Origin: Octopus vulgaris
Taxonomy: Eukaryota
Reading direction: 5' to 3'
Assembly: GCA_951406725.2 (NCBI GenBank)
Contig: OX597830.1
Location: forward strand, 22,382,001-22,446,000
Length of the DNA: 64,000 nucleotides
The position numbers and the translations under genes were made by a program. This document shows, one piece after another, positions 1,100 to 64,000 of this stretch. Every line of letters starts with the position of its first letter. Position 1 is the stretch's first letter. Under the pieces are notes generated by a model. That model saw nothing but the letters and a program-made list of their open reading frames with translations. It was not told where the DNA came from and ran no database searches.

Positions 1100-2940
1100 T
1101 CATTTAAAATATTTTAGAGTCTTCAGTTTAGCGTGGACACAAACTTGACCCAATTCGATATGGTTATTTAACAAGCCTTAATATTTTCTATGCCTTAGAA
1201 TTTCATACGTCTCCATGGAGCAGAGTTGGCAACCAACCCTGTTATTTTTATACGGCATTGCTCTCCTAACTATTTCCCAATTAAGGTTGTAATTCCTGTT
1301 TTTATTTTTGAGTTCCCAGATCTTATTTGAAAGTGTGGTGGTACCAGCTTTATGACGTAATTTAAAAGATGAGACGTGATTTCTAACTCTTTTTTTAAAA
1401 TTTATTGTACAACCAATGTAAAAAAAATTGTTATTCTCAGTAGATATGGTACATTTATAGATTACGTTATTTTCCCCGCATAGACCAGGTGCCGGGCATT
1501 TTGACTTAATTCTACACTTACACACAGGAGTAGCAACTTCAGCAGTTGGATTATTCATGGGTAGATGTCTTATGTTCCTGTTATTTTGATTATCATGAGT
1601 ATAATTATCTTTATTATTATTATTATTTTTATAGTTGGTGCCGTTATCTAAAGCATTGTTATTATTTACTGATCTTTTTGCTCCATCTTTCAGGTCTAAA
1701 GTCCTACCATGATTATTTACATTATTGGTATTGTTACTATTATTGCTAGTATTTTTATCTGACTGTATAATGTTGTTATAGATATCACTGATATTTTCAT
1801 TCTCTGTATTTTCCCTATTAGCCTTACTTCTATTATTAACATTATTACTTCTATTAATATCGATATTACTATTACTATTACTCTTATTAATGTTAATATT
1901 ATTATTAGTCATTCTGTGGTTACAGATTTCACCCATGTTTTGATAGTTACTATTGTTGGTAGTATTATAATAATAATTGTTATTGGTATTCATGTTGGTA
2001 TTATTATTTTTATTTCTATCTTTCCTGGCTAGTTTAATGTTGTTATTATTAATCTTTGCTATTAAAGTGGACATATTTGGGAGGGTTGAATAAGAAATCC
2101 TAACTGTTTTCTTAGAAATAATTCTATGATATCTATGAGAGATTGGGAAATTTTTTTCTAGAATTACTTTGAATTTGCTCTGTATATCCGATTGAATCGC
2201 ACAGTTGAAAGGAATATTCAGCCATATTATATCTTTCTTATTAAATTTCCTTGAATTAGAATCAGGGTTCTTAGAATTATTACTATTCATCCCACCAGAG
2301 TCATTGTATTTATTACCATTATTTGTGTGCATCTTTGATTTATCTAATTCTATTTTATCCGAGTTACCTATGATTTGGTCTATGCTTCTATTTGATTTGC
2401 GGTTACCGTGGATCTATTTCTACTTCTATTTCGGGCGTGGTCTATATTGCTGCTTATGTGATTACTGATAACTTCTTTATTAGGAATATGTAAGTTCCCC
2501 TTATCAATGAATGTAATCTTTTGGTTGTATCCTGCCTTAGTTAACGCTGTATTATAATGCTCAGAATGAGAGTTAAATATATCCTTATTGGATGATAATT
2601 TTGAAATTCTTAATGAAATATTTCTGACTAAAGATTCAATTATATTTGGGGGATGATTGGATAATTTATTTACGTATCTCGTGATTTCGCCTTCTTTTCT
2701 AAATGGGTAATGCAGCTTGGAGTTAAGGTCTAACGTAATATCTAGGAAGTTAACTATTTTAGTGCCAGGCTCATACGTTATGCTGAGGTTGAAATCCTTA
2801 AAGAACTTATTAATTTTCTTTCTAATCCTTTCTATACTAGATTTATTATTACTAGGGATAACAAACAGAGCATCATCCCTATATAAACCACCTTGTAGTT
2901 CCGGGATATCCTTACTTATGCATAGTTTTCTGGTGCATCT
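1100..2940 (-). mobile_element. Penelope-like retroelement (Naiad-type), 5'-truncated RT + Asn-rich linker + GIY-YIG endonuclease, degenerate
   Basis: Minus-strand translation gives RT motifs GGLYRDDALF, VNFLDITLDL and SNHPPNII (2640-2900). These are followed by WLNIPFN, ISYSTLPNM, CKCRIKSKCP, VIYKC...YIGCT..FKKR...H, LSNKIWELK and CQLC. After one in-frame TAA at 1178 it continues GLLNNHIELGQVCVH to TGA at 1100. Confidence 0.9.
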
Positions 2941-2994
2941 AAGTTAAGTACCATATTCAAGTAAATTCATTGGAATTGACTTGAATCTTAATTG

Positions 2995-3045
<51 letters not shown>

Positions 3046-4018
3046 TATAAAATTCGAGGAAAAAAACCTTACATTGAATAAAACACATATTGTCATTAAT
3101 AAAGAAAATATAATTAATACATGGAAATTGAAATTAAAATGTCAAAATACATTAAAATATTACACGGCAGTACATATTCATATTAAACTATACATATATA
3201 CATCAACATACACAAATAGATGCTTGCAGACCATGTACATATACAGACGTATAAATATAAAGCTAAAATATACAAACAAATGCATGTTCACATATGCATA
3301 CACAATCTAGTTTGCACGCAAAACCACTGTATCTATAAAGACTATAAGCTAAAATCATGGATATAAAGTTGAAGACATGGGTAAGGGAGGGGGGGACGTA
3401 AAGTTACATGACTCCACAAGTAATGAAAAGTAAGAGAGAGAAAAAAGGGAAGAGAGGGAAAAAAGAAGAAAAAGGGGGGGGAAACGAAAGAAGAAAAATT
3501 ATGTATACAAACTGTGTAAGCACATATACTGCCACATATATATAGAGACAAGTACGCAAACACACAAGTTCAAGTGGATACATACACATACAATCGTGTA
3601 TGTATGTGCTTAAGTACAAACATACGCTCACTTACACATATACAAAGATGTATGCTTACAAATACATATTCGTGGCTTTACACATATTTACATCAAAATG
3701 CCTAGGTTCTGACAACATTGATTTTTTAAAAAATGGTGAGTGTAATAATAAAAAATTATATGAAAGACATGTAAAATATAACACCCTATTTCGGATCATC
3801 TATAAATTAAATATCAAAGTAAGCCTATACAATATAATAACATGAAATAAACTAAGTCGAAGGTTTTTCCTAAGGAATATGTAGAAATATAAACAAAATA
3901 TATGCACGAGACTTTGCTATACGGAATGAAATCTGCATAGCGCGAAACAAATCCATCGGTGCGTTTACAGACTAGTCCAAGAATCAAAATTCAAAAATAC
4001 AAAAAGATAAAATATACT

Positions 4019-6490
4019 CTATCCATATGGGATATTTATGTTTGAGATTTTAAATTTGGTTGCATGCCTGCATGAGTTCATCAGCTCACTTCTTTGATTC
4101 AAAGAATTATTGTCTTTGAATAAAATATAAAGTTTCTCTAACAGGCAAAGATTGCACTTAAAATTTTTCTTGTGTGCTCCATGTCTGTATGGTACCGCTC
4201 TGTCCAGAATGCTCCATGTAACGTTAAAAGGTGGGGTTTCCTTTTCTTTTAGTTCCCAGACATATTTTGCTAGGCTGGTCCTCTTCCTATTTTCTGGGTA
4301 TCTAAATGCATTTTCTGAAGCCCCTGTATAGGTCTTGCATTCCGATGAGACTTCTATTTGTACCTTGGCTCTATAAATGACCCCTTTTACTAGACATTTC
4401 CCTTCCAACGGACTGGAGGATTCATTTTTACAATTGCATTTCTTAAGGGGCTCGGCACCATGCTTAATATCAATCAGATTCCTATTATGCTGGCTAATGT
4501 AAGAGATGAAATTTCTGCAACAAGAATAGCTAACCTTAAGGGTTCTTCTATTAAATATTCTATAGAATTTATGGTCCTGCTTAAAATGCCTAGAGGCTAA
4601 TTTCAAAAATTCCTTACCTATATTAGTCTTTACGGCCAAATTGAAAGCCGGGTTTAACCACAAAACTTTCCTGATCCTAGTTCTTCACGCAGCATTATTA
4701 CCAGCATCAAGCTGGTTGTACTGGATCTTCTCAGAGAATCCACTATTCCTTAATGTGCTATCGTAATAAGGTGCAGCATTATGGAATGCTGCCTCATCCG
4801 AAGAAATTGAAGATATTCTTCTACCTACATTGCCGACTAAGTTCCTAAGGATAACTGGCGGATGGTTCGAATCTTTGCTAATATACGATAGCTTGTCATT
4901 GGGCTTACGGTAAAGTTTAAATCTATCTGACCTTACATTAAAATTTACATCTAAAAAATCTAGACTTTTCAGGTTAGTATCTATTGTAACCCGTAAGCCC
5001 ATCCTTTGGAAGAAAGCAATAAGGTCCTTCCTGAGTCTATCTGATTCATGGCCGTTTAAATTATGGGTGGCTATAAGGCCGTCATCCCTATATAAATCTG
5101 CATCTATAAATGGGAATTCTATTTTTAGATTATGAAGAATAAAGGCTCTTATGAGCATACATAACTCTGCCCCGTCATATGCCCCCATCGGTACATCGAA
5201 AAGAGAATCCTCACTCTTCTTAATCCAGGTGGAATCCTCGAAAAAAAGAAGTGATTTCCTCGCACGCATAATAATATCAATTTCCGAGCTATCGATGCCG
5301 ACATACTGCTTGGCGAAGTCCAATGCCCTTAGGAGTAACGTCCTAGATATTGACGGGTAAAAGTCAATAATATCGAATTGTGTAAAACTGCAATTATTCT
5401 TATAGCTAATACCTTTAAACCACTCTATGACTGACTTACTATTTTTCCAAATTCTCAAGTCTAATTCACTATCTTAGTTAAAATACGTTCCAAAATATAT
5501 TTGCTAATAATGGCTATCTCAGTTTTAGCCGGATTTATCAATCTACATTTGGGGTTTCTATTACAATTGGCTTTATGGTCTTTTAGTGTAATAAAAGCTG
5601 GTCGTGGGGAAAGATATTCAATCCTATCACTAATCTTGAGATTGTTAACTATTCCTCTTGCTTCCAAATTCACCTCTTTGTATATATTTGCGTTATCTTT
5701 TTTGTAAGTATCTGTGACACTATTTGAAATCAAACGCTTATAAACGTCCTTATCAAGTGCATATAAGTTCCTTGTCTTATCAGAATTAATGAAGATCTTA
5801 TTCGAGTTGTTAATCTCCTTAATTTTTTCTTACATATTTCTCTGTAATTGGTTGCTATATTTGCGGAATTTAATTTTCCTAATAAGTTCGAAAAGGTCTT
5901 TCTCGAAGGCTTCTAATTCTGGAATAGGTGGTGGATTTCTGGGAGATTTAAGTCCATATTTGTTTCCGTCGGTTTTCTGTTTAGTATCAAAGAAGAAGGC
6001 TTTCCATCTCAATCTTCGAACAAACTCTTCCGTTTTCTCTATAAGACCTTTGAGATATTGCTTCCGTTCAGGGATAGGTATATTTTTCTGAGAAAAATCC
6101 AGCGGGTAAAGTTCCATCTTTTTCAGCTGTTTATTCTTCCTACTTGTGCAGAGTCGCTCAAACTTTTATAAGGAGCGGGTTAGACCGGAGTAACACATAA
6201 ATGTGAAACAAGGTCGAAAAAAGAGTACTCAAATACCAGTGGTAGAGTAATATGCTTTATTTAAAGCAGCATATTTATGTTTGACATTTTAAATTTGTTG
6301 CGTGCCTGCATGAGTTCATCAGCTCACTTCTTTAATTCAAAGAATTATTGTCTTTGAATAAAATATAAAGTTTCTCTAACAGGCAAAGATTGCACTTAAA
6401 ATTTTTCTTGTGTGCTCCATGTCTGTATGGTACCGCTCTGTCTAGAATGCTCCATATCACGTTGAAAGGTGGGGTTTCCTTTTCTTTTAG
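4019..6490 (-). mobile_element. Penelope-like retroelement (Naiad-type), near full-length RT + GIY-YIG, disrupted by stops/frameshifts
   Basis: Co-linear ORFs 6117-5830 (KNIPIP, RRLRWKAFFF), 5733-5461 (TLKDHK, CRLINPAK), 5458-4685 (FDIIDFYPSI, MGAYDGAE, LYRDDGL, FLDVNF, SNHPP) and 4663-4019 (WLNPAF, CNC..CL, CNLCLLEK, LNQRSE, CRH). 6272-6490 is a direct copy of the ORF 3' end (about 4035-4250), the pseudo-LTR arrangement typical of PLEs. Confidence 0.93.
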
Positions 6491-7681
6491 AGCATTTGGC
6501 ACTCATGCATTGAGGTTTTTGTATCTTAACTCATTGAATAAAAGTGACAGGTGACATCACGTGAGCATCCCATCTACTGGGCCAATTCCTTAGCTGATTG
6601 GTGCAGATCTTTGTGGATGAGCAGTGCTCCCCTTAGATAAAGCTGTTTGGTCATTCAGGAATCTGCCAAGTGGTGTTGTCATCTCCTGGTCAACACCAGG
6701 TGACCAATGTCCCAAATTGCCTGCATGCAGGTTGGGAGCTGCGGTTTCCAGTGACATCTTCAACCTACTGCCCCCCCTCCCATCATTACAGGGCTTGGGG
6801 AGTTGTGGATGTGGACAGGTCCTTTGGCTTGCATGATGGAGTTTTAAAGTGAAGTGCAATCTGTACAGAACTGGCCTTACCCTTTACACCCAGGGTTTAT
6901 CTGCTGTGGCTTAGCAAGCTGGGATGATGACAGAGAGGTGCTTGTCCTTCTCTTAGACAGGCTGCTGATCATGGCTAACAAGCCCTATCTGCTTGGAGCA
7001 GTCTGGTTATACTGCGCCAGACACCTGCAATCATCCTCTCCTGCTAGTTTAGATTCAGGTGGTACCATGGGGAGGTCAGAGTAGGACTTGGGATTTGCAT
7101 CGCTCTGTGGAAGTCTTAGCCCAGTATAGTGCTTGTCCAAACTAGCATTTGGTGACTATGTGGACCCCCGTATATTATGATATACCATTGTGGTATACGG
7201 GGGTAAAGTAATATCTTTTGGGTTAATAAGAGTCAAGGTAATAAACATCAAGAAATACGACGACAAAATAATATTGACTGCAACATTTGTTCTGTCACTA
7301 AAAGGAAATACAGCAACTGGTATAACATGAATAAATCTGTCAAATTAATACATAGCTACAAAGTACTTCTGATGAATGTTAGAAGAAAACATGAAGCATG
7401 GCATCATAGATTCCGGTTACAATTTTCTCCTCACTGAAGATGCAAAGATAAATTAAACTGCTGTTATAGCTGATGTTAGGATGATTGGCTAGTCTATCAT
7501 GTTAAGGGGTGGACAGCCTGTGTATGGCTAGATGGACTGGTACCTAAAGTTAAAGGGCCATTGTGTTTTCCGGAATTCTCAGTTGTTTTTGTTGCCAGGT
7601 GATGTGCCAGCTGTGATTCTTCGACGCGGTTGATGAAGCTGGTTCAAGGGAAGGTCGCAATTCGTTGACGGGGTCACCAAA

Positions 7682-8302
7682 TGTAGTGGTTATATGTGTA
7701 TCAATGAACATAGATGGAAATGGAATGTGTATGTAAACAAATACGTAAACCGATCCATAATTGAAAAGAATTTATTTTCAGTGTTTGATTCGTTATACAC
7801 TACATACAAAATGTAGGTACACTACATACAAAATGTAGGCAACTGCTACGAGTTGCTAGAAATACAGAGTACATTCGTGGAATTCATATTAGGAATGAAT
7901 GTATTTGTGTGTGTGCGTTGATCATTTGAAATAGTAGTCGATCGTAGCACTTCAAATCATTTCTCTCGGTCTCTGCCAAAACCTTCTGTAGGTGGACTAT
8001 CTCGTCTGTCTACCCCGTTTGTCTGCCCACCTCTCTTGTTTTACCACGGTTCTATAATATTTGTGGCAGCTAGAAAGACAGACATACTGCAGCAGAGTTT
8101 GTACCTAAATAGGTCAGCACCTGTCCAGTTGAACTTCGCCTGACATGACGAGGTCGTAGGTCAAAGGGAGATGATCAATCAATTTTTGATAGGACAAAGA
8201 AAACCTTTTTTCACACCTGTTGATCGTCGTGGTTTGGACGACCAAGAATTCTTGGATTCGGTTTCGAATCTCGACTTCGAGAAGGAAGTGTTAATTCTTA
8301 CA
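7682..8302 (-). mobile_element. LTR of gypsy-type element with adjacent tRNA-Trp PBS
   Basis: TGTAGTGG...TTCTTACA termini as in the LTR at 13157-13742. PBS TGGTGACCCCG (minus) at about 7668-7678. The leader 7612-7680 is nearly the same as 13087-13156. Confidence 0.75.
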
Positions 8303-8372
8303 CAGGAGTTTTCCAGTTCTAATTCATTGATGGGTGATGTGAAAGCAGTGATTCTTTGACGGGGTCACCAAA

Positions 8373-9078
8373 TGTAGTGGAAAAAGGTGTAGCACAATGT
8401 TGAGATCGCAGATGAAATAGGCATGTGGATGACTTCAAAGCAAAACAATGGAAAAATATTGGGTTGTAGTTTAAATAATTTATTTAAATGACACTTGCAT
8501 TTACTTGTATACACAAATATTTCACTTCATCACATGATTACCAACTGCTTTGAGCTGGTGAAGAAATTAACAGGGTACATACTGTGAATATGATTGGGTA
8601 GATCTGGACATGTTTTATATCTGTGTATGTGTTAGTCATTCAGTAGTGTCTGTTTAGGGTCTGCAACATCGTCTGTCGTTCATGTTGAATATCTGAGAAA
8701 TTACTGGCTGGGTATCACGTGGCATGTCTCTCTCTCTCTCTCCGTCCCTGACTTGACTATTTCTCTCACTAATTGTCGGTCTCAGAATCTGACTTTCTGA
8801 CTGACTGTACCTTGACGGATTGCCGTATTTATGAAGGTCATGGTAGCTAGGACAGACATACCACAGGAGAAATTGTACCTAAGTAGGTCACCTCCTGTCC
8901 ACTTGAACCCTAAATGACATGGCTGAGGTCAAAGGTTGAAGGAAACAATCCATCATTTTGTGACTGAACAAAGAAATTTCTTTTGCACCTGTTTGGTCAG
9001 TGGTGGATCAGACAAGTGAGAAACATTAGATTTAGTTTTGAATCTAAGCTTGGAAAAAAGGAAGTGTTAGTTTTTGCA
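8373..9078 (-). mobile_element. Second, diverged LTR with tRNA-Trp PBS
   Basis: Starts TGTAGTGG next to cggggtcaccaaa. It shares motifs (gtacctaa.taggtca, aggtcaaagg, gaagtgtta) with the neighbouring LTRs. Confidence 0.65.
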
Positions 9079-9199
9079 TATATGATTTTCCAGAATTGGA
9101 AGGCCCTGTAAAGGGAACTGGTTGCTTCTTTACACCTGTGGGGTGCAACTTGGGTGCAACACAATTTCCTTTCTTTAGATTCCAGAGACTACCAGTCAG

Positions 9200-10147
9200 G
9201 AACAAGTAACGCAACCTTAAAAAATATATATAACTCTTTATTTTCTTATTTACGAAAGAAGTTCGCTGGTATCTTGGTATCCACTAGATGCGAAATAGCA
9301 AGGCTGAATTTTAACGTTTGTAAGCTTGTTACAACAATTCAGCAGCAACAGAACAGGTATTCAACAGCAACAGAGCAGGTCGTCATGGCGCTATATAGGA
9401 AAACGCCCTAGTCATTGTCCCCTTCAGTCTCTAGCGCATGCGCATGAGGGAACTTCCCTATGCCTTTCCAGAAGGTTCTAGAAGGTTCCAACCCCGCACA
9501 TGCGCACTGAAGAAGGACGTTCCGCACATGCACACTGAAGAATGACGTTGCGTGTGCGCACACTAGAATATGGGACTCTAAAGCGGTTGCCAAAACAGTT
9601 TGTATATAGGCGGGCAACCTTGAAAAAAAAATTTTCCAAAGAAGAGGAGCATCTGCAGCTTTACCGCTCAACTCTCTTAGGCGTCTCAAAAATTCAGACG
9701 GAGTCCTATCTCCCAACTCCTCATTCGCCATCAATTCATTGAAGCGACTTTCCTTGCTTCTAGTATTCCGTTTCACCACTTCTAATCTAACAGATACATA
9801 AGTGGCATCTAGAGAAGGATTCGTAATAAGATCTCTGGCAGTAGTTGCAAGTTGAGGAGGCATACAACTATAAAGAATTTGCAACTGCTGCTCAGAAGAA
9901 ACACTATGTGCACAAAAATATGCCTCTAGTTGTGCAAACCAAAGTGCGGCATCACCCGTGAAAATAGGTAATAATGCCACAGACATGTAGTTTTTAAAAA
10001 TTTTACTAGATGAAAGGGAAATAACAACGAAAAGTTCTAGAAGGTTAGGTTCCAACCCCACACATGCGCACTGAAGAAGGACGTGTCGCACACGCACACT
10101 GAAGAATGACGTTGCGTGTGCGCACACTGGAATATGACGTCACTACA
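9200..10147 (-). mobile_element. Rearranged LTR-retrotransposon remnant with gag fragment
   Basis: Gag-like LPIFTGDAALWFAQLEAYF...EELGDRTPSEFLRRLRELSG...WKIFFSRLP, homologous to the gag at 11918-13038. It is flanked by about 100-bp direct repeats (about 9476-9571 and 10034-10136). The minus strand begins TGTAGTG at 10147. Left boundary uncertain. Confidence 0.75.
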
Positions 10148-10670
10148 GCCCCATGATGTGCAAGCCATTTATTTTGGGATTGATTTTATGGCACACTTCG
10201 AATGTATGCCTCGCAAATTGTTGAGCATCGAAGTTATGGTGTGATAGCCATTCCTCAAAAATATCTAGTGATGTTTGTACATCATGGTAGGTATTGTTCA
10301 TTTGTGAGAAATATTCTTTTTGTCTCTTATCTGTTCCCATATGGCTGTTACTTTTGTTTCGATGTTGTTTTCAATAGGTGCAGCTTGTATTATGTTCATG
10401 AGGTTGGGTGTATTTCGGTATATGTTGCCCCATTGTGTTCTGTATTGCGTTTTTGTAGTGGTTTTACAGAACCTAATGATGTCGCCCTTGTCAGTACTGC
10501 TGTATTTCTTCATAACTTTCTTGATAAAGTTATATCTTGCACCTCTGACTTTTTTTTTTTCCTTTTTCTGTGGTATTGTTGGTTTCATCCTCTTCGTCGT
10601 CTGAAGTGGGATTGGGATCGTAAAGTTTGTCTGTGAGTTTTTGTGCTGATGTTTCTATTTTGTCAGCAGC
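10148..10670 (-). pseudogene. Endogenous viral element: densovirus/parvovirus-like NS1 fragment (region just upstream of SF3 helicase Walker A)
   Basis: Frameshifted reading ...RYNFIKKVMKKY...YHDVQTSLDIFEEWLSHHNFDAQQFARHTFEVCHKINPKINGLHIMG resembles the segment before GxxxxGK[T/S] in densoviral NS1. This is recognition from memory. The Walker A itself is cut off by an insertion. Confidence 0.7.
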
Positions 10671-10710
10671 TATGTCCACGTCTTTTTGTCTGATGACATT
10701 TTTGTCCAAC

Positions 10711-13700
10711 TGTAGTGGATGCGTGGATGTATTAATAAATACATAAGTTGTTTTGTAATAAATTAGAGATTTATTTTCACTACATCAATTTGTAAGCAAT
10801 GCTACACATTGCTTGTACAAAAATGCATATTAAATAATGCTTGCAAAGAATACATATTAAAGAAATGCATAATACATGATACATATTAAGGAAGAATATG
10901 TTTGATGGTGTGTGTGTGTGTGTGTGTGTGAGTAAATCATGCAGGACAGTCACCTTTATGCATTTTCTCTTGTCGTCTCCTGAAATGCGTGGCGTTAATT
11001 TAGGCGTCAGCTCTGGTTCTCCCCAGATACCGATTTTTCTGTTCTATTTATAAAATCTCAAATAGCCAGAAAAATAGATATATCGCAAGAGAGTTATCGT
11101 TAAAGTAGGTCGCTGGTCGTTCTGTTAAACTTCGCCTGACCTGCTCAGGTCAGAGGTCAAAGGGAGACGATCCATCACTTTTTGTCAGAACAAAGGAATT
11201 CTGATTTGGCGCCTTTTTATGCATTGGTATTTGACGACCAATGATTCTTGGGTTTGATTTCGAATCCAAGCTTAGAGAAGGAAGTGCTGCTGGAAACGCG
11301 GATGATTCCGAGGTCGAGCATGTGCTGGAATTCCCGCTTGACAGCCTGGAGACGATCAGGTGGTAACCTTCTGGGCCTTGCAGCAACAGGTGGACCGCTG
11401 GTTTTGATGTGGTGGGTAACGTCGTGTTTTATTGGCTGGTTATGAAAAACTGGTCACGCGACATCTGGATATTCATTCAGGATGGAACTGTGACGAGTCG
11501 TTGTTGTAAGCATTACAGTTGGGCTGACTGTGTCCATTCGAGCGGCTATACCGCGCACAGTAAGCTTGGTGGTGCTGTCGACAAGTCGTCTGTTCTTTAT
11601 GTCTACCAGGAGACCGAAATGATGCAAGAAATCGGCTCCTAAGATAGGGGTCGGCAGTTTAGCGACGACGAATACCCACTGAAATGTGCGGTGTAGTCCT
11701 AAGTTTAATGTTAGGGACTGTTGACCGTAGGTTGGGATGGGTGAATGGTTGACTGCCTGAAGACAGACTGATGTCTCTTTTCTTTTTCCAGAAGTGTTGG
11801 AGACTGGGATGATGCTGACTTCCGCACCTGTGTCAACCAGGAAACGCGTGCCTGTTACACGATCGCAAACGAAAAACAGGCGACTGTGTGGGTGCGAGCC
11901 AGGAACTTCCGTCGCGTTCAATTCCTGGCTGTGCCGTTTCCCGAACTGGGTGAGGAAAATGAGCACGGTACCATACATTTTTGTGCCCGTGTTCCGAATG
12001 TTCGGTGGTACCAACACATGTCATGTGAGTTGCGGGTAGCACTGGGGCTTCGGGACCGTCTGCCATCTCGTCGAGATCGGCTGGTGCTTCGACGCTGGGG
12101 ACTAAGCTTTAGGGCTTGTATTTGGGCTGTGAGGATTTGTATTTGCGCAGCTTGCTGCGTCATTAATGCACGCAAATCCGAAATCTCGGAAGAACTGGTT
12201 TGTGCACGGAAAGGATTGGTACTGGGAGTGGCTGGCGTCACCATCGATACCGTTGGGTATTTGTGCGGTACTTCGGCTATTTTGTCAGCTAGCTCCGCCA
12301 GTTCTTCAAGGGATGTGTTTTCTCTGGTAGACGCGAGAACAACCTGGGTATTGGAGGGCAGACGCTGGAGAAAAAGTTGCTTGAAAATTTTTTCTGGGAG
12401 CGTCTCATCTCCGAGAAGCTGCTTCATTCTACGAAGAAGCTGGGACGGCGTTTTGTCACCCAATTCTTCCGATATCAGAAGCTGGTGAAGTCTTTTTTGT
12501 TGGGATTCTGAGGTTCTGTTTATTAACGTGGTTTTAAAAACTTCATATGAAACAGAACCGGGTGGTGCCATGATAAGGTCACGTATTACGTTCGTCAGAG
12601 GTTGAAGGGAGACGATCCATCACTTTTTGTCAGAACAAAGGAATTCTGATTTGGCGCCTTTTTATGCATTGGTATTTGCTGACCAATGATTCTTGGGTTT
12701 GATTTCGAATCCAAGCTTAGAGAAGGAAGTGCTGCTGGAAACGCAGATGATTCCGAGGTCGAGCATATTAACGTGGTTTTAAAAACTTCATATGAAACAG
12801 AACCGGGTGGTGCCATGATAAGGTCACGTATTACGTTCGTTATTTCTGGTGACAGAGAACCGATAACATGAGAAAGTCGAGCCGCATCGCTCAATATTCT
12901 GTGAGAGGCAAACTGTGCCTCTATATGGTGAAACCACAATGTCGGGTCGTGGGTCCAGAATGGTGGAATTTTTAAAGAGATCGCCGCTTGGAATGCCATG
13001 TCGATGTTGGCCGCTGGATTTTGTTCCGGGAGATCCATTGTTTTCGTCGGAATTTTCAGTTGCTTCGTTGCTGGTGATGTGCAAACTGTAATTCTTCGAC
13101 GCGGTTGATGAAGCTGGTTCCGGGGAAGGCGCGATTCGTTTTACGGGGTCACCAAATGTAGTGGATGCGTGGATGTATTAATAAATACATAAGTTGTTTT
13201 GTAATAAATTAGAGATTTATTTTCACTACATCAATTTGTAAGCAATGCTACACATTGCTTGTACAAAAATGCATATTAAATAATGCTTGCAAAGAATACA
13301 TATTAAAGAAATGCATAATACATGATACATATTAAGGAAGAATATGTTTGATGGTGTGTGTGTGTGTGTGTGTGAGTAAATCATGCAGGACAGTCACCTT
13401 TATGCATTTTCTCTCGTCGTCTCCTGAAATGCGTGGCGTTAATTTAGGCGTCAGCTCTGGTTCTCCCCAGATACCGATTTTTCCGTTCTATTTATAAAAT
13501 CTCAAATAGCCAGAAAAATAGATATATCGCAAGAGAGTTATCGTTAAAGTAGGTCGCTGGTCGTTCTGTTAAACTTCGCCTGACCTGCTCAGGTCAGAGG
13601 TCGAAGGGAGACGATCCATCACTTTTTGTCAGAACAAAGGAATTCTGATTTGGCGCCTTTTTATGCATTGGTATTTGTCGACCAATGATTCTTGGGTTTG

Positions 13701-13742
13701 ATTTCGAATCCAAGCTTAGAGAAGGAAGTGCTAATTCTTACA
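10711..13742 (-). mobile_element. Ty3/gypsy LTR retrotransposon, internally deleted (gag + protease + RT start only)
   Basis: Near-identical LTRs at 10711-11288 and 13157-13742, 4-bp TSD CAAC (10707-10710, 13743-13746) and PBS TGGTGACCCCG (tRNA-Trp). Gag (KIPPFWTHDPTLWF, ELGDKTPSQLL, CWYHRTFG..A.KC..PC), protease FLVDTGAEVS and ILGADFL, and RT start HHIKT..PPVAARPRRL..DLGIIRVSSS fused to the LTR. Confidence 0.95.
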
Positions 13743-13899
13743 CAACAACTTTTTGTCCAATTTTAAATAAACTTTTTAGAAAACAAGATGAACAACAAAA
13801 TCAAATAATCATTGAGAATTTTATTGATAAGATTCAAGTAAAATACTGTGGAAAAATATATTGAAAAAAAGTCATTTTAAAAAGGTAATAAGATATAAC

Positions 13900-14870
13900 T
13901 AATGATTTATTACGATCACTTAAAATTGATGCAAATTATATGCCACACTCTTCAAAAAATCAATTTTTCTTGAATTTGACGGATCTCCTCGAAGAATTTG
14001 AGTCATTTTACTTGAATAAATCCTTCCTCTTCCTTCAGAGTTTTCATTAATTTCCAAATATTCATATGTGCTCCACTCGCCAAATGCTTTATTGCAGAAT
14101 GAAAACTCCCCACAGCATTATTTGTTTTGGGAAGGTCTGATTAACATTCCATACAGCTATTGGGAATGTAGGTGGTTCTCTCCTTCATATAACACCACAT
14201 CCTCTCACAATGCCTCTGTAAGTCAAGTTGAAGTAAGCGATAAATTCAGCAGGTATTTCTTCATCATCCATTAATTTTTTATAGGCCTCGTCGACATCTT
14301 CAATAGGTAGGAAAGCTAATGCTGAAAAAACATCAAACTTTAAGATGGAAGTCAGAGTCTTTATTGTATTCTTCTTTGAGGCCTAAATCTGTAACTTTTT
14401 GAAATACTGATTGACTCAACTGAAACAAACATGCCACAATAGCTGAATTAGGGAAGAATGAATTAAATGCCTTATGAATGGCAACTTCAAAATCTGCCAT
14501 GAGATCAAGAGGATATGCATAATTTTCAATTGCTCAAAAAATAATTCGTATGTCTGCTTTGTTTTGTTTGGCAGTAATATAAAGACCCATGGAAAATTGC
14601 TACCTTTAACTTGTACATGAATGCTAAGCAGTTGAAACCACTGTTCTGGCATAATTTTGAACATTCCATCACATTCCCAATGACGATATGAGGCTATATC
14701 CTGAAGAGCACTTTCTTATGCAAATACTAATATGTGCTGTTGATCCTCAATACCCAAATCATATCTCAGAAACTGTTTGTCATTACCAAGTTTACAATAT
14801 TCTTCAGGTATTTCAAAACTAGTTCTATCTCCTGGATTAGGGGGAAGTCGAGATGTTTGATGAAGTGACA
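13900..14870 (-). mobile_element. MULE (Mutator-like) transposase remnant
   Basis: FLRYD...ILVFA, WECDGMFK..PEQWFQLLSIH, PWVFILLPNKTKQTY and KTNNAVGSFH...NIWKL. Short ttttgtc subterminal-like repeats at 10672-10710 and 13747-13762 on both sides of the gypsy insertion. Confidence 0.85.
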
Positions 14871-14959
14871 TAGAATAAAAAGACACAGCATCATACCAGC
14901 CACCCCTCACTGGATCCTCCACTTGCACTCTCCAAGACTTGTCGCATCATCACCCCAGT

Positions 14960-15390
14960 TCATCTGGGTCTTGTCCATTATTACAGTGGATTATTACAGG
15001 ATTCTTTCTGTAAACATTCCAATGATTTTTGTTCTTTATATATGTTTGATTTTATATAGTTTGTTGGAATATTTGAATTTATTGATCTTTTTAGACACAT
15101 TATATATTCCCCTGTTTATTGGAAGTTTAAATCCTGTTTTGTTTTTCAGAAGTGATGAAATCTGTGTTGTTTGTTTTGGAAGAATTCTCATAGACTGAGC
15201 TTTCTACAAAATTCCTCAGTATTTTTAGTAAAATCTATTATGTCATGTTTGGGATTTGGTGTGAATTTGAGTGCATATTCCAGAAGTTTTATTTCATTTT
15301 CCATCATGTATCACTGTGACAGGTTGATTACTTTTAGTTCTGCTGGTCCCATATTTTCTGGACTCTTCATATCTATCATTGTTTGGCTTC
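14960..15390 (-). mobile_element. Penelope-like element N-terminal ORF fragment
   Basis: KVINLS...EIKLLEYALKFTPNP...TEEFCRKL.L.EFF, the usual N-terminal PLE ORF motif, with multiple stops. Confidence 0.75.
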
Positions 15391-15725
15391 TGGATTAAAT
15401 GGGCTTCAAAAATTCTAAATACATTTGCTGACAATTCTTTTTGTTTGTTAGTAATGTTTTACATTTTTCATTCGTTCATGGCCTTTTGGTCCTGTGCTAA
15501 GCAAGATATAACTGTACTTTAGTTTTTCTTCTATTTTGTTAATAATAAAGTGCGAATTCATGAAGTTGATCCATTTATTATATGCCTCGCATTTGTTCTT
15601 GTTCAGCTAATGTAAGTGTAACGGTATTATTGATGATGCCATTTTTGTAGCCCAAACTTATATTTGGAGGAAAAGAGAAAGAATTAACTTTTTTTTATCA
15701 TATTGTTATGCCATTCTGGATTTGT

Positions 15726-16668
15726 CTATGCATGCAATGTGATTTCTTTATTCTTTTTCTGCATCTCCAGCAAGGAGCCCTTCCTCTTTCTTTTTTTTAC
15801 CACTTCAAATCCCTCCTCTATTCCTGTTGTCTCCTTCACCTCCTCCTGTACCACATCATTCACTCTCTCCTGCTCCTCCAACTGTTTCATTTGTTGCTCT
15901 TTCTCTTCTCTCTGGGGGCACCCCGCCTTCATGTGGCCTTTCTCGCCACACAAGTAGCTTATGGGAGGTCTACCCTCCACCACCACTCTTAATCTCACAT
16001 CTTCAGGTAGTATAATTTCTTCCGGCATTTTGTTCATATCACTTACAGTTGTCTGAACTGCCATCTCAATCCCGTAACCCCACCAGTTGACTCTTTTTGC
16101 CCTTGTCACTCTCAGCATCTTAGCATCCTCTTTCATATTGTTACAAGACTGCAGCAACCATCCATGTCTCATTCAGCTCTGGTGGTACTTTTCCCACCCT
16201 TATTCTGACAACTTGCTTACCACAGTATGTCGATAGGAGCATCCACTCTTCTGTCTTTATGGCATCAGTGGAATGCTTTATCTCTTCATCCTCGCTTGCG
16301 AATCGCACCTCCACTGTGCCATATCTTCTTCCTCTGGTTATGAACATAGTCGCCTTTTTAATCTCTTTCAGACTCTTCTCTATCTCTTCTATAGTTGCTA
16401 CTTCGATTTTCTTTGTCGCTACCTTCAGTGTTTTATAAATCACTGTTCTTCTCTTCACTCCATTTGTTAACTTGAGCAAGGGCATTAATTTAAGGTTGTG
16501 GCTTTCCTTTTCTACTAGCTTGCCACATTCGTTCAGCTTTTTTTGTTCGATTTTAATTTCTCGAACCTCCAAATCTTCTGCTTCAGTTCCTTTGCCTGTT
16601 GCAGCCACACAACTGTGGCTCTTCACTGGTTCAGTCTCCATTCCACTTCTTTTTGCCGGTTCTCCCAT
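15726..16668 (-). mobile_element. Non-LTR retrotransposon ORF1 remnant (RRM-like + degenerate CCHC knuckle)
   Basis: Overlapping ORFs 16668-16141 and 16172-15726 with GTVEVRF, IRVGKVPPEL and VVVEGRPPISYLCGEKGHMKAGCP, then an acidic/basic tail GFEVVKKRKRK. Confidence 0.65.
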
Positions 16669-18221
16669 AAATGGGAAGAAACAAACACAATTCTACAGAA
16701 AACTTGTTAGAGAAAACAGCAATTTCAATCAAGGAACAAACGTGGTACACCCACGAGGGGAGACCTTTAACAACAAAATATCACACTTCAATGGAATCGT
16801 CAAGATTTCAACCAAAAAAACAACACACTGCCACAAAAATTAATGCCATCTGACTTCAATTATTAAATGCAATGTGACTTGCTCATCTGAACAGTCTGAG
16901 CAATAGCTTGGCTTCAATACTTGGAAGTGTCCAGTGTTGCTTCCATGCAATATTTATGGAGCAAAGGCATCTTTGGTGGAGAGTGTTCCAGAAGTTTGAC
17001 CTGCTACCTGTAAAGCACCCAAGCTTCTGACAAATAAAGGAGAGTAGTGATGACAACTGTCTTTTAGATTTGGGTTTTGGTAGACAGGTAAAGAAAAAAA
17101 ATTGGGTAAGAGAATGGAACTCTGTGGTATTTCATTTAGGAAAATTGCAAAATCTGAAACCTTTGTTTTTGAACACTACTTAGGGCTTTGACAGGTTGTT
17201 TGCTAGCCAACATTTTAATGTTTCTGAAAGTAGTATGGGTTATCATTATTTAAAATTTTTTTTTTAATAAGTGAATAGTATGGAACAATGAAAAGATTAC
17301 TGCCAAGTATTATAAACATTAATGCCAGATTGGATTCAGAATCAGCTGTAGTGTCCACAATTTCCAAAGATGATGTAACTTCTAAACTGATTATTTCAAA
17401 CAAATAATGCCTTCTTTCTATGTTTCCTGTGAATTGCAGAGTACCTGGACAAATTCTAATAAATTTAATACTCTTCAAATTTGCAAACCATATTTATTTA
17501 TTTATTTTTGTTGAAGACTGAAAAAATAAAATTTAAAAACCAAAAAACTACTGACTTAATGAGAAAATGTTATTGTGTTGTCATAAAGTTTATATTTTCC
17601 TTTACGTTTGTTCATTCTTATTTATTTATTGTTACACCCTCCTCATACACTTCAACTGCCTGTCTTCCCTATCCGCTCCTGCAATCCACCCATCAGCATG
17701 TCCACTCTCTTCTCTTGTTTACTGTATCAGCATTTCTGTTCTGCTACTCTGCACTATCAAACATTCCCTATTCCCCACTCATTCCTACATACCACCTTCC
17801 TACTGGTTGGCATTGGGAAGGGCATGTGACTGTAAAAACCTCACCAAGGCAGATGCTGGAGCATGATGCAGTCCTTGAGCCCACTGGAGTCTGTCAAATC
17901 ATTCAGCCTTTACCAGCATAGATCATGGATGTTAAATGATGATGATGAAATAGGCAGAGGTTTGTTTTATTTACCATTTCATTCTTATTACTTTATTGAA
18001 TTATATATTTTTTTTACTTGTTTCAGTCATGTGACTGTGGCCATGCTGGAGCACCGCCTTTAGTCGAGCAAATCGACCCTGGGAAATCTGCTATTCATCT
18101 GCTATTCATCTTAGAAATGGTGTAGGTTGATCTCTTAAACAGAAATCAGTAATAAATTTGGTTTAGATCTATGAAAAAGAAATATTTGCAAAATATAATT
18201 TATTAATTAAAAAAAAAAATT

Positions 18222-38405: not shown

Positions 38406-40781
38406 CAGGTATAGACTGACTGTGCTAGAATAATCTGACTATGCTTTATTCTATTGACTAGTTTCAGTCAGTGGATGTGGCACTGATTTTAAGGGTTTAG
38501 TTGATCACAGAGAACTGAAACTGATTGATTGATTGATACATAGATATATACATCGTGTATGTATGCATTATATGTAGCATTTAACACTAAGGAATGTGAC
38601 ATGATTCGTTCTTTTGCTTGGATATTTGTAGCCAATCAGATTGCTCTTTTATGACACAGGCTGCTTTGTAGTCAGATCATTTCTGTTAATCAACCTTTGA
38701 TAAATTAACAGTTTTTGTCTGCAATTCTTTTGGTATCAAAAACTTATACTAAGAAGTAACCAGCCATTTTGAGTCACCTGTGTCTTATAAATACACAGAC
38801 AGTTTTTAATTTAACAAATCAGATTTGTCACCTTATCACCAGACTCCTTTGCTGGTCTGTGAGGAATATTCTCACGTTGCTGTTTTGAAGAATAAAACAT
38901 GAGTCTTTGGGGGTGGACTGTAGAGACTTTGGAAGATGCCCACTTTGTCAATTCCTCTAGCAACTGAGTTTTACAGAGGTAGCAATGAGGGCCAATCAAC
39001 CTGCAAGTGAAGCTTGCAGAGAAATTCACCAGGGAGTTTTGGGGTGAGAGAACTGGTTCATACACTTGCTGCTAGAATGCACGTTGGGGGCCTGATCAAC
39101 CTGGTGGGTTTGTCTGAGTGAGGGAGTTGGATATTGAAAAACTCAAAACATCAAAGAGTCACTTCAATTGATTTTTTAATGGCTTTGCGGGGTGACTGGG
39201 GAAATGTAAAGATGTGCACGACCACCCTTGGACGGTTTTGAATGACCATAGAAAGTGCAAGCCCTCTAACTGAAAAATTGTGGATTTGTATAAAGGAGAC
39301 GCATGCAGATAGACATTTTGCCGTTTATATATATAGAGATAATTGGTAGAACTTACATAGGTGTGCATAGATGGATGGATGAAGGGAAACACACACACAA
39401 AAGTCTAGTGGTGTGAGAACACATGGGAATGACGTTTCCTTACTTTTTCAAATATACCCAAATTTAAAATGATCTAATACAGAGGTTCTCAAACTTTTTG
39501 GGCCACCGCCCCCCCTCTCATGGCCACATAATACCCTCAGCGCTTCCACCCCTATTTTTATGATCCCAAAGAAAAGATCTCTTTAGTGTTGCATCAACAA
39601 TTTGTGATCTGACACCGTTATTTTGAATATTCTCCTCTCGAGATACCCTAACCAGTCGGTCATGAACAGCGGAAACAGAATCGGGTCTACATCTCCGTGC
39701 ATATTCAGACATCCGTTTCAGTCGCTTTGCCCTGGATTCATCTGATTCAGTTGCCCGTATTTCTCTTTGCCGTTGTGCTTTTGCTGCTAAATTTTCTCTT
39801 TCAGTCGCATATTATATATAAATGAAAGTTCGTTAAAAACCACCTTGTTTAGAGTGCTAGAAATAGCAGGGATCACATAGTTATTATTGTAAGGCTTATC
39901 GCATTCCAAATAGCTATACCAACAAAGTCACTTCATTAAAAAAAAAAAAAATTATACCGGTATATTAAAATTTATTTATCTTATCAAAAATATTAATTTA
40001 ACAAACTCCGGAAACTGATAATATTCTTGAAATTGTGCCTTGTATCAAAGTTATATAGGTATTATTAAATTATCATTAATGAAAATAGAGGCGAGCGAGA
40101 ATGAGACACTGTTGTAAATAAACGTTAAGTGTTGCCTACAACGAATTAAGGAAAGATAAATAAATAAATACGGGTGTACCTCTGTCAGCTGATTTGAACC
40201 AGTAAAAGAGACAGATAGCAAAAGAGAAAGAATGAAAGACAGATAAAAATTGAGTGAGGGAGATATTACCCCAATGATTCTAGACGTTTGTATAACCATT
40301 TAGCCGTCAATAAAGGATCTTCGTTTCCCGAAGGTAGAAACACGTAGTGGATATCTTCGAGTTTGCTCTGGACGAGTGGAAGTAAGGCTTCATTCGAATG
40401 CCACATACAGTCGACATAACTGGACTGGTTATCGAAGACTACAAATATGAGAGAACTGTTGGCGAATAAAGCACTCGGATATTTCAAAGTTCCTTCCAAG
40501 CTATTCAAAACAAAAGGAGGGGCCTTGTCGTTCGGTGTGTAAGTAAACCTGCCGAAGCCGTCAGTAGGTCGTTTGGGATTTCCGTGATGTTGCCGGGCTT
40601 TCAGATTCCTCAGGGCCACATTGTTTTGAAAACTTCGTAACTGACCCCTATGGGAAGTTGATAATTTCTGTATGTCCCTTCCGGGAATGTTTTGATATCG
40701 GAGTTGGTATTCACCGACAGAGAGACCAAACAAAAGATATACACAAAGTGTTAAGAAAGTCAGATTCATATGAGTAGCCAT
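18222..40781 (-). CDS. Signal peptide + PA domain + PNGase F-like peptide:N-glycanase (11 coding exons, 694 aa)
   Basis: All introns GT-AG with consistent phases: 40781-40270, 37087-36930, 35487-35300, 33860-33709, 31527-31390, 30523-30396, 27807-27639, 24622-24477, 22540-22419, 20276-20153, 18469-18222 (2085 nt). Motifs CPAWDR, ELGRWITPF, ITGHG, GCGEFC, YGRDGWCDG. Confidence 0.9.
18790..19157 (-). mobile_element. tRNA-derived SINE family A (representative copy)
   Basis: Head with A box TGGCTGTGTGG and B box GGTTCAGTCCC, internal (CA/TA)n. Other copies at about 26180-26545(-), 27220-27610(+), 29232-29637(+), 29874-30265(+), 37235-37597(+), 43970-44372(-), 44776-45158(-), 47635-48018(-), 49428-49770(-), 61817-62350(-). 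Confidence 0.9.
20153..20276 (-). CDS. PNGase F-like gene exon 10
   Basis: IYAVITGHGSDENGCGEFCVTSHHFNINGK. Confidence 0.92.
21307..21522 (-). mobile_element. tRNA-derived SINE family B (representative copy)
   Basis: Recurrent ggcacaaggcc...ccccagt...gaaaggatgaaaggcaaagtcgacctcggcagaatttgaactcagaa. Copies at about 20878-21050(+), 21545-21770, 30900-31100, 46215-46417, 50915-51072, 51820-52580 (array), 54600-55075 (array), 60068-60230. Confidence 0.85.
22419..22540 (-). CDS. PNGase F-like gene exon 9
   Basis: YPEEAKPLFLPGAVFDHNYNNHFKPYFF. Confidence 0.88.
22680..23207. mobile_element. piggyBac-type non-autonomous element
   Basis: TTAA-CCCCTTGAC ... GTCAAGGCG-TTAA termini. Confidence 0.7.
24477..24622 (-). 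CDS. PNGase F-like gene exon 8
   Basis: IGIWVTDVSPLLPLL...PWASPWKPSASLRF. Confidence 0.9.
24686..25500 (+). mobile_element. mariner transposon remnant
   Basis: Imperfect TIRs (aggtttgatcaaaaagtatcagg / cctgatgctttctgatcaagcct). Internal HDKAPVHSA and QPPYFPNL match the mariner HDNAPAH and PPYSPDL motifs. Confidence 0.8.
27639..27807 (-). CDS. PNGase F-like gene exon 7 (catalytic WDR and ELGRW motifs)
   Basis: LSCPGTRDEDCPAWDRTV...MELGRWITPFRR. Confidence 0.92.
30396..30523 (-). CDS. PNGase F-like gene exon 6
   Basis: MKFQNKLE...VPLFENATMQGKSGIVANVTLP. Donor chosen by phase of the next exon. Confidence 0.85.
31390..31527 (-). CDS. PNGase F-like gene exon 5
   Basis: FQNTPSQNFYMAIDPLGKLTEVGWMLYPS. 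Confidence 0.88.
33224..33451. mobile_element. piggyBac-type MITE (representative copy)
   Basis: TTAA-CCCTTTAG...CTAAAGGG-TTAA. Related copies at about 18535-18740, 21795-22015, 27846-28071, 32390-32602, 35625-35838, 57115-57340. Confidence 0.8.
33709..33860 (-). CDS. PNGase F-like gene exon 4 (PA domain)
   Basis: ITNVQAAGYKGAVIMMRPGEPLQDMNCNGEQC, phase consistent. Confidence 0.88.
34400..34715 (-). mobile_element. Composite element: tRNA-like head + (AAY)n + hammerhead-containing Penelope-type tail, with 5' inverted tail copy
   Basis: tRNA-like 34652-34580 (A box TGGCGTGGTGG, B box GAGTTCAATTC). Core CTGAAGA-aggccg..cagcc-GAAA at 34484-34453. 34655-34715 is an inverted copy of the tail. 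Second copy at 63535-63745. Confidence 0.7.
34784..34951. repeat. Perfect 78-bp inverted repeat with 12-nt spacer
   Basis: 34784-34861 is the reverse complement of 34874-34951. Confidence 0.92.
35300..35487 (-). CDS. PNGase F-like gene exon 3 (PA domain start)
   Basis: KRLDARYDWL...NGC...DKVALVYNNGCSIFQQ. Confidence 0.88.
36930..37087 (-). CDS. PNGase F-like gene exon 2
   Basis: AG/GT bounded, NFHFAIQSVSNLTNWIPDCLNEWACSDHGCG. Confidence 0.85.
39545..39810 (-). mobile_element. Helitron-like coding remnant
   Basis: AAKAQRQREIRATESDESRAKRL (Helitron N-terminal repeat-like) joined to RSQIVDATLKRSFLWDH (Pif1-helicase-like). Confidence 0.55.
40270..40781 (-). CDS. PNGase F-like gene exon 1 (signal peptide)
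   Basis: MATHMNLTFLTLCVYLLFGLSVGE hydrophobic leader, GT donor at 40269. Confidence 0.85.
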
Positions 40782-57935: not shown

Positions 57936-58415
57936 ATATTCAAATATGAATGAGAAGCTACCTGAGGGATATAAACAATATTGAGCACACATACACAAGA
58001 TATGTGTTTTATCAGTATGTGGGCAGGCTGCGAATTGTAGGCGTAAGAGAATATATTCTCATCAATTTGCCTGGTGTTAAAATACCTGGAAGTGACAGAC
58101 AAGCGAGATAATTCGCATCAGGCCCCATTACAGGAGAAATAGATATTAGCATTTCGCCATCTTTATGATTTGTCAATATCACAGCACGGAATTTTGTCAG
58201 CGAACAGGTCACAGTTTCAAAGCGATGAAAATATTTTGACAAATTAAATTTAAATGTTGAAGTGAATCTAACAGTTTTTGTGTGTTTCTTAAATGGCTTA
58301 TAAACACCTTCCACGCTGCAATTGTTTTTGTTCCAGCACACGATCTCAGATCAGATCACTTGCTATGCAAGTACATCTCCGTCTTCGGGCTAAAACATTT
58401 TTAAGGATTTTAAGG

Positions 58416-58453
<38 letters not shown>

Positions 58454-61400: not shown

Positions 61401-62114
61401 TGCTTTCACTATGTTTTAGCTGTCGTACACTTCAGCCTTCTTCAGGTGTCTCGTGTTGAACTCAATTTAGTTATTGGAATTTCGAACCAAACCTTATATT
61501 TGATCCTGTGAATCAAATAAAAGGTTAGATTTGAAATTCCAATTCAAGAAATGAGTTCAACTCAAGACACCTGAAGAACGCTGGAGCATACAACAGCCGA
61601 AACATAGTGAAAGCAACAATCATGATGCGGCCACCAGTCCAACTATTATAAACAGTATACTTTGTTCTGGAGTCTATTACTGCATCTGTTTGTCTTTCTA
61701 AATACACACATATACAAACATGATATGGAAATAGATACTTTGTAGATGTAGGAGTCATATTATCTTAGTGCAGTAACTTTAGTAGAAATAGGAGATATTT
61801 ATACCCTGAGTATATACTCTTTTACTTGTTTCAGTCATTTGAGCACCGCCTTTTTAGTCGAGAAAATCGACCCCCAGGACTTATTCTTTGTAAGCCTGGT
61901 ACTTATTCTATCGGTTTCTTTTGCCGAACCGCTAAGTTACGGGGACGTAAACACACCAGCATCGGTTGTCAAGCGATGTTGGGGGGACAAACGCACTTAT
62001 ATATATGATGATGATGATAATGTACATATATGTATATATATATATATGATGATGATGATAATGTACATATATGTATATATATATATATGATGATGATGAT
62101 AATGTACATATATG

Positions 62115-62148
<34 letters not shown>

Positions 62149-63371: not shown

Positions 63372-64000
63372 CTATTCAATGGAAAATGGTTCTAATGTGT
63401 AACCACACTTAGACAATAATATATCACAAATATATACAAATGCTGTGTATGTGTGTAGAAATAGGTGCTTTTCTTTGAAGGTTAATAAATTCTTTGAATT
63501 CCTTATTGACAAGATAGGAAACTAGCTAAATATTCATTATTTACATTTGACGGATATTTGTCCTCATCTTGTTTGTTGTTAACACAATGTTTTGGCTGAT
63601 ATACTCTCCAGCCTTCATCAGGCATCTTGGGGAAATTTCGAACCTGGGTTCTCATTCCTAAGGTATTTTTCAATGTTGGTGTTGTTATTATTACTATTAT
63701 TATAATTATTATTCAGGTCACTGCCTGGAATCGAACTCGGAATCATCATCATCATTGTTTAACGTCCGCTTTCAATGCTAGCATGGGTTGGACGGTTTGA
63801 CTGGGGTCTAGGAAGCCAGGAGGCTGCACCAGGCCCAGTCTGATCTGGCAGTGTTTCTACAGCTGGATGCTCTTCCTAACGCCAACCACTCTGTGAGTGT
63901 AGTGGGTGCTTTTTACGTGCCAGGCGAGTCAGGCAACGGCCACGATCGGTTAGTGCTTTTTACGTGCCACCGGCATGGAGGCCAGTCGAGGCAGCGCTGG

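Follow-up and report, generated by a model that had tools for sequence, protein, structure and literature searches.

Organization of the locus

The window, by which we mean the whole 64,000-nucleotide stretch of Octopus vulgaris DNA analysed here, holds an intact host gene, a block of mobile-element remains lying 3' of that gene and, within the block, a fragment of a parvoviral gene. The genes and the elements of assignable polarity described below all lie on the minus strand. The host gene is peptide-N-glycosidase F-like and comprises 11 exons (18225–40781) that are 87–98% identical to an Octopus bimaculoides protein; the ORF at 40269–40778 is 92% identical to O. bimaculoides LOC106882100, and the N-glycanase_C profile is matched with E = 4e-15. 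The analysis started from a sequence-only reading in which the DNA was taken to be probably molluscan, and this gene places it in a cephalopod. Named homologues of the gene occur in O. bimaculoides and Argonauta hians; N-glycanase domains are best known from bacteria. Exons of a diflavin reductase gene, probably methionine synthase reductase, lie at 58015–63391 (FAD_binding_1, E = 2e-10).

The intergenic block (1181–16692), a candidate one-strand piRNA cluster, is made up of elements pointing the same way. All nine elements of assignable polarity in the 1–17 kb region are on the minus strand, in agreement with the co-oriented cluster of the sequence-only reading: three Penelope-like elements, three LTR elements, the NS1 fragment, a MULE-like piece and a zinc-knuckle ORF, the last two scoring below the Pfam cut-offs. 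This count leaves aside a short repeat (6181–6271) that has no assignable polarity. Random orientation would give nine of nine with a probability of about 0.004, a figure that treats as independent some related copies that are not. Pfam matches at E ≤ 0.001 are likewise confined to one strand (4 of 60 minus-strand ORFs versus 0 of 70 on the plus strand). Two of the Penelope-like elements, each with reverse transcriptase and GIY-YIG domains, stand in tandem at 1181–6490 and are about 33% identical in protein, and 6271–6490 is a 96%-identical copy of one Penelope-like endonuclease end.

A parvoviral NS1 fragment

Positions 10710–10148 carry a fragment of a parvovirus NS1 gene that is interrupted by two frameshifts and is 57–69% identical to proteins with the Parvo_NS1 domain. 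When a 74-amino-acid piece (P0001) was searched against 5.8 billion proteins, six of 11 candidates matched (E = 7e-19 to 7e-13), and five of the six carry PF01057 Parvo_NS1 above the Pfam cut-off, with hmmscan in agreement; the parvoviral origin proposed in the sequence-only reading is thereby upheld. The window pieces are too short to match on their own, and none of the three matched Parvo_NS1 in Pfam or any parvovirus chain in the PDB.

Piece A (10554–10710) covers the end of the nuclease domain and an acidic/basic linker (roughly residues 150–190 of P0004). Its blastp matches to clade members are weak but in register, and it raises the clade-profile score by 14.5 bits, a gain reached by none of 1000 shuffles; homology begins at about 10685–10710, upstream of the 10670 at which the fragment had been taken to start. 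Piece B (10322–10549), recovered by a local-database search and by tblastn, is the helical domain that precedes the helicase and is the best conserved of all (68% identity over 76 amino acids to P0026, E = 5e-35 in the local database). Piece C (10148–10321) contains a helix and the first SF3 helicase strand, runs to the first Walker A glycine, and is 74% identical to P0004 over 47 amino acids; the 57–69% identity to Parvo_NS1 proteins (E down to 7e-19) belongs to this piece. The frame breaks fall in an A-run at about 10550–10561 (between A and B) and at about 10320 (between B and C), and the scored parts of the three pieces contain no stop codons. Six-frame translation recovers on the minus strand every motif from which the fragment had originally been recognized: TSDDEEDE..KGKKK in the frame of 10760–10533, and Y.D...SLDIFEEWL..QQFA..TFEV.HK..PKINGLHIMG in the frame of 10370–10149. 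Both of those frames stand, while the middle piece at 10549–10322 had been missed along with the 5' start.

The Walker A motif is split by an LTR element

The LTR beginning with TGTAGTG does start at 10147, as the sequence-only reading had it. The fragment had been held to stop exactly there, just before Walker A, and here the two accounts part: the Walker A motif continues at 9106–9079, 1,041 bp further on. What lies between is element B (9107–10147), an internally deleted Gypsy-type LTR element of 1,041 bp situated within the Walker A codons. It has TGTA...TACA termini, a gag fragment (DUF7041, E = 3e-11) and a 3' LTR with a TATA-like site at 9398 and AATAAA at 9242, and it is flanked by identical 4-mers (10151–10148 and 9106–9103), i.e. 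a 4-bp target-site duplication. Past the element, 9106–9080 translates as GPSNSGKSY, which is how Walker A reads in the relatives; we refer to this remainder (9079–9106) as piece D. The window contains a single instance of this Walker A motif class, against a mean of 0.0 in 300 shuffles, and joining piece D with an X at the break adds 14.8 bits to the clade profile, which none of 3000 random pieces equalled. As piece D had been spotted prior to testing, the argument is the shuffle count, the position and the duplication taken jointly. Many contigs from other sequencing runs stop or diverge at 10147/10148.

Since a 4-bp duplication flanks element B and Walker A resumes beyond it, the viral sequence predates this LTR element: element B inserted into the Walker A motif when the viral DNA was already there. 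An end before Walker A is ruled out by GPSNSGKSY beyond element B together with the target-site duplication. Of the earlier interpretation there remain the endogenous NS1 fragment in a cephalopod and the co-oriented block; the stop before Walker A, and with it the LTR as the limit of the fragment, does not hold.

In the window copy the clade profile finds no Walker B, B' or C beyond Walker A in any of the six frames, and the N-terminal HUH nuclease motifs fall outside its span; the intact relatives carry a Walker B-like DE/EE motif. Because the nuclease motifs and Walker B and C are absent, the window copy presumably encodes no working protein or enzyme. Neither tblastn with all fetched relatives nor the six-frame clade profile found further viral sequence in the window beyond the four pieces, which total about 590 bp.

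Neighbouring LTR elements and the route of integration

Three LTR elements, all in the same orientation, adjoin this stretch of about 590 bp. Element A (10711–13742) is an internally deleted Gypsy-type element with two LTRs, a primer-binding site at 13154, gag and protease (DUF7041, E = 5e-21; RVP, E = 4e-6); it has TG..CA ends and is flanked by identical 4-mers at 13746–13743 and 10710–10707, where the chance rate of identical flanking 4-mers is 0.5–0.6% per pair. Elements A and B thus both show the hallmarks of the Gypsy type (TG..CA ends, a 4–6 bp duplication and gag/protease remains). In none of three frames does the sequence 5' of element A raise the clade-profile score; since this flank is not detectably viral, element A is placed at the 5' edge of the fragment. 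Element C (from about 7560/7682 to 9078) consists of two older LTR copies, each followed by a primer-binding site, in the order LTR, primer-binding site, short leader, LTR, primer-binding site. Its first LTR starts at 9078, directly after piece D, and its LTRs are related to that of element A (71–74% identical); a search of the window for its other end, marked by a corresponding duplication, found none.

In elements A and B the internal sequence is fused to a 3' LTR lacking its first 10–11 bases (at 11288 and 9572, respectively), and element A holds a second copy of the pol-LTR junction inside gag (12594–12766), bounded by a 92-nucleotide repeat; the fused LTR/internal junctions look like template-switch products. 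In addition, an 11-nucleotide direct repeat (13760–13750 and 10709–10699) flanks element A, its 3' copy overlapping the 4-bp duplication there. End-joining repair at the 5' virus–host junction may have produced this repeat as a small duplication.

The order of events that we envisage begins with the insertion of an NS1 piece of about 590 bp from a parvovirus into an octopus germline chromosome, either through end-joining repair that captured nuclear parvoviral DNA or through retroposition of a piece of NS mRNA, the junctions being uninformative on this choice. Element A would later have inserted at the 5' edge of the fragment and element C at its 3' side.

Retrotransposon-mediated capture is known for RNA-virus endogenous elements in mosquitoes, and a comparable route would have a Gypsy reverse transcriptase switch template onto NS1 mRNA, so that the fragment was carried as cargo between two LTRs. 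An LTR does adjoin the fragment on each side in the same orientation, and the four letters after the 3' LTR of element A resemble the start of its primer-binding site (family D3). Yet self-BLAST gives no match between the two flanking LTRs, which are thus of different families, elements A and B are each bordered by a separate 4-bp duplication, and the viral frame is picked up again past element B. We therefore consider capture very improbable, and the separate duplications and the frame beyond element B rule it out for the two LTRs now present; a carrier element that has since vanished may have served as such a route.

Relatives of the fragment form an unnamed NS1 clade

A search with P0004 matched 15 of 2187 candidates, all of them unnamed Logan proteins, and an exhaustive search gave 984 matches, 24 of them at E ≤ 1e-30. 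The matches comprise a tight group at about 40–78% identity, followed by full-length proteins at about 30%. Of 20 of these outer proteins looked up, four could be tied to a named representative: two to bird 'Parvoviridae sp.', one to an Ichthamaparvovirus and one to a chaphamaparvovirus. No named densovirus was among the four. The unclassified bird 'Parvoviridae sp.' are the nearest named sequences of the clade.

For the phylogeny, 44 rows were picked from a 97-row FastTree set for IQ-TREE, omitting matches with too little sequence around Walker A; the window sequence, with X at its breaks, filled 47% of the columns, and the tree was built without named Densovirinae or Parvovirinae. The window fragment is sister to P0004 and P0005 (99/92 in IQ-TREE; FastTree 0.997 for the placement) and is nested in a 12-row clade of unnamed NS1 sequences (100/99) on a stem of 0.64 changes per site. 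The clade has no supported sister; the deep nodes of the 44-row tree are unresolved, and in that tree it was not seen to group with Chaphama- or Ichthamaparvovirus (Hamavirinae/Hamaparvovirinae). Two named sequences (P0160 and P0148) and the unnamed P0087 form a separate group (100/99) apart from it. The terminal branch of the window fragment (0.25) is not longer than the path to its sisters, which fits modest decay of the fragment.

The structure of an intact relative, P0012, was modelled with AlphaFold (pLDDT 74.5). Among the 50 best matches of the model in BFVD, 46 are named parvoviral non-structural proteins and four are unnamed, at 12–28% identity; the top five are unclassified, and the first ambidensovirus comes at rank 15. 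In a Foldseek search of the PDB the top match is AAV2 Rep68, with about 520 aligned columns, and SV40 T antigen and papillomavirus E1 rank below it, while atlas matches to Rep/HUH families score only 0.81–0.83 and are a lead. P0012 is thus predicted to fold like parvovirus NS1/Rep.

Many clade members (P0004–P0032, Logan) are truncated ORFs, and most of the close relatives are 137–406 amino acids long; many of the clade members may therefore be EVEs of other genomes in their own right. Exact-pattern scans, which are of low sensitivity, found the clade in neither IMG/VR viral contigs nor JGI metagenome contigs. Neither a capsid gene nor a terminal hairpin was seen in any clade member, and as true viruses the members would be known from NS1 alone. 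The truncated ORFs from unnamed Logan contigs, the empty viral and metagenome scans and the want of an observed capsid gene would also be in keeping with a capsid-less selfish or domesticated element derived from NS1, or with some other carrier of an SF3 helicase (a Polinton or a CRESS virus). Against this, the best matches in Pfam, the PDB and BFVD are all parvoviral rather than to other SF3 families, with papillomavirus E1 below the cut-off; full-length relatives of 514 and 568 amino acids have the size and layout of NS1; and sequencing run X5 (see below) shows one copy at ≥ 85% identity, not a repeat family. Such an element is accordingly a very improbable source, slightly more so than capture by a retrotransposon, and we retain a viral NS1 as the origin of the fragment.

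The label 'densovirus-like', which the fragment had carried, goes further than these data. The clade is unclassified, the published best matches of related cephalopod ESTs are to Aveparvovirus (Francois et al., 2016), and membership in Densovirinae is a candidate placement among those in a family whose taxonomy has six subfamilies (PMC13426907, in the portion available to us).

Copies in other samples

The fragment is contiguous with host chromosome: the window also contains the 11-exon Octopus gene, and host transposons are nested in the viral sequence, and it is because of these two features that we regard it as a non-retroviral endogenous viral element (EVE). The stretch is present in 20 of the 24 runs listed, from nine studies and under three species labels, three of which runs may be the source sample. 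Ten of the 20 are RNA by guess only, none being so recorded. Four runs were compared in detail: X4 (label A), X5 and X14 (label B), and X11. The species names behind labels A and B are coded, and the two labels may stand for sister species or for one species under two names.

The fragment is covered at about 99% identity in three of the four (X4, X5 and X14); in X11, of which about 76% was read, its interior is uncovered. A single 620-nucleotide contig of X5 spans 10119–10739 with six substitutions and one gap, and depth in that run is flat over 10235–10504, with no second close copy (≥ 85% identity) seen. Contigs of X4 and X14 also cover the fragment, although contigs show neither transcription nor strand. 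X4 and X5 share several differences, so that this variation is common to labels A and B. The label-B contigs (X5, X14) extend 29–30 letters into both LTRs, short of our 31-letter bridging rule, and the LTR junctions are likely common to label-B samples. The frame break near 10320 is shared, with no indel there in any of the three covering runs, whereas the length of the A-run at 10550 differs in all three. Decay (two frame breaks and the LTR insertion) and presence in other samples (copies of about 99% identity in three of four runs) are thus both observed.

The fragment is bounded by high-copy LTRs, with depth in the thousands, and misjoins occur in such sequence; viral contaminant reads could in principle have been joined into a repeat-rich scaffold. 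Such an artefact would have to account for the target-site duplications, for a Walker A motif split by an insertion, for a frame break common to all three other covering runs and for near-identical copies in runs from nine studies, and we regard it as by far the least credible of the alternatives considered here. We therefore take the fragment as a real chromosomal sequence.

Age of the insertion

The two LTRs of element A differ at 4 of 576 sites, and the shared part of those of element B at 5 of 90. LTR ages were computed with a rate of 2.4e-9 mutations per generation, that of the blue-ringed octopus as quoted in PMC13669787. On this basis the viral fragment would have a minimum age of about 1.5 million generations (0.4–3.7) from element A, and possibly an age of about 12 million generations (4–26) from element B; as element B is rearranged, its divergence may overstate the age. 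An octopus generation is about a year.

Association with cephalopods

Endogenous parvoviral elements are common in invertebrates. Francois and colleagues reported parvovirus-related ESTs from Euprymna scolopes (DW283133, DW277466) and Sepia officinalis (FO193416), the mollusc sequences branching outside all known genera and contamination not being excluded, as well as two O. bimaculoides genomic copies (KOF81493 and KOF62817), one of them adjoining a transposon (Francois et al., 2016; PMC5013282, available text). Compared by eye in that paper's trimmed alignment, 64 of 71 residues of the E. scolopes EST match clade member P0017, and about 21 of 49 match between the S. officinalis EST and window piece C; the ESTs thus appear to belong to the same NS1 lineage as the window fragment. 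Parvoviral EVEs in octopus are not new, because the same authors list the two O. bimaculoides copies; what is new, as far as the consulted parts of that source go, is the germline record for the present lineage. Literature outside the subscription journals yielded no germline record of the lineage or the locus (supplements could hold more cephalopod entries), no description of a cephalopod parvovirus and nothing that joins parvovirus, endogenous viral element and octopus; the word 'cephalopod' is absent from the available text of a 2024 review (PMC11357303).

If the host of the virus was instead a parasite, a symbiont or a prey animal of the octopus, from which viral DNA reached the germline by accident, the lineage would be something other than cephalopod-infecting. 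The contamination that could not be excluded for the mollusc sequences (Francois et al., 2016) and the unnamed hosts of the Logan relatives leave room for this reading, but integration in the octopus germline and the close bobtail squid and cuttlefish ESTs (by eye) point repeatedly to cephalopods. We judge a non-cephalopod host very unlikely, if a shade less so than the other alternatives. Thus the locus very probably holds a genuine endogenous fragment of a parvoviral NS1 gene, from an unnamed and probably cephalopod-associated lineage, that was later interrupted by LTR elements.

An NS1 lineage that, in the published record available to us, consists of a few squid and cuttlefish ESTs is now placed inside an octopus chromosome, and the nested LTR insertions imply a minimum age of millions of generations. 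Some two dozen unnamed proteins from public runs, about 40–78% identical, amount to a sizeable undescribed group, of relevance to cephalopod aquaculture and to parvovirus taxonomy.

A possible piRNA cluster

The dense one-strand layout of the 1–17 kb block fits, by analogy, a candidate flamenco-like piRNA cluster. If the viral fragment is active at all it would act as RNA, as a passenger in a transposon-trapping one-strand cluster and a candidate source of antisense piRNAs; the antiviral part that the sequence-only reading raised for such piRNAs would be equally hypothetical. The full proposal is a joint one: that the block is a plus-strand-transcribed flamenco-like cluster storing NS1 as heritable antisense memory, and that the target is a cephalopod-specific parvovirus lineage, distinct at the level of a genus or above, that is still circulating in squid, cuttlefish and octopus. 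We hold this joint claim to be doubtful. The host gene is on the same strand as the block, such that read-through would be sense, which speaks against the piRNA reading, and the co-orientation could come from insertion bias alone. The block is nevertheless a concrete site at which to ask whether cephalopods store viral memory in piRNA clusters.

Comparison with known systems

The fragment and its relatives resemble parvovirus NS1/Rep (PF01057; AAV2 Rep68, B19V NS1) in having an SF3 helicase that follows a helical domain and whose Walker A fits K.N.hhh.G.[ST]N.GK[ST], and intact clade relatives align structurally with NS1/Rep over the whole protein in the predicted model. They differ in the low identity of those structural alignments (12–28%), in the long separate stem (0.64) and, for the window copy, in the loss of the nuclease motifs and Walker B/C. 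With regard to the sequences described previously from cephalopods, the ESTs are short transcripts, whereas the window copy is part of a host chromosome and bears nested LTR insertions that can be dated; KOF81493 and KOF62817 of O. bimaculoides look by eye like a different lineage (Francois et al., 2016, available text).

Parallels to the genomic setting are found in other invertebrates, as far as the available portions of these reports go. A flamenco-like EVE cluster has been described in Aedes aegypti (Aguiar et al., 2020; PMC7161354), Gypsy elements are over-represented in the piRNA clusters of molluscs (PMC6128900), and parvo-like EVEs of a starfish and a sea anemone give rise to antisense 5'-U primary piRNAs (Waldron et al., 2018; PMC6085071). 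Like the A. aegypti and the starfish and anemone EVEs, the octopus viral fragment sits among one-strand mobile elements. Those EVEs are backed by small-RNA data, while the octopus locus is known from its DNA layout, and, in contrast to them, it received LTR elements within the viral piece after integration.
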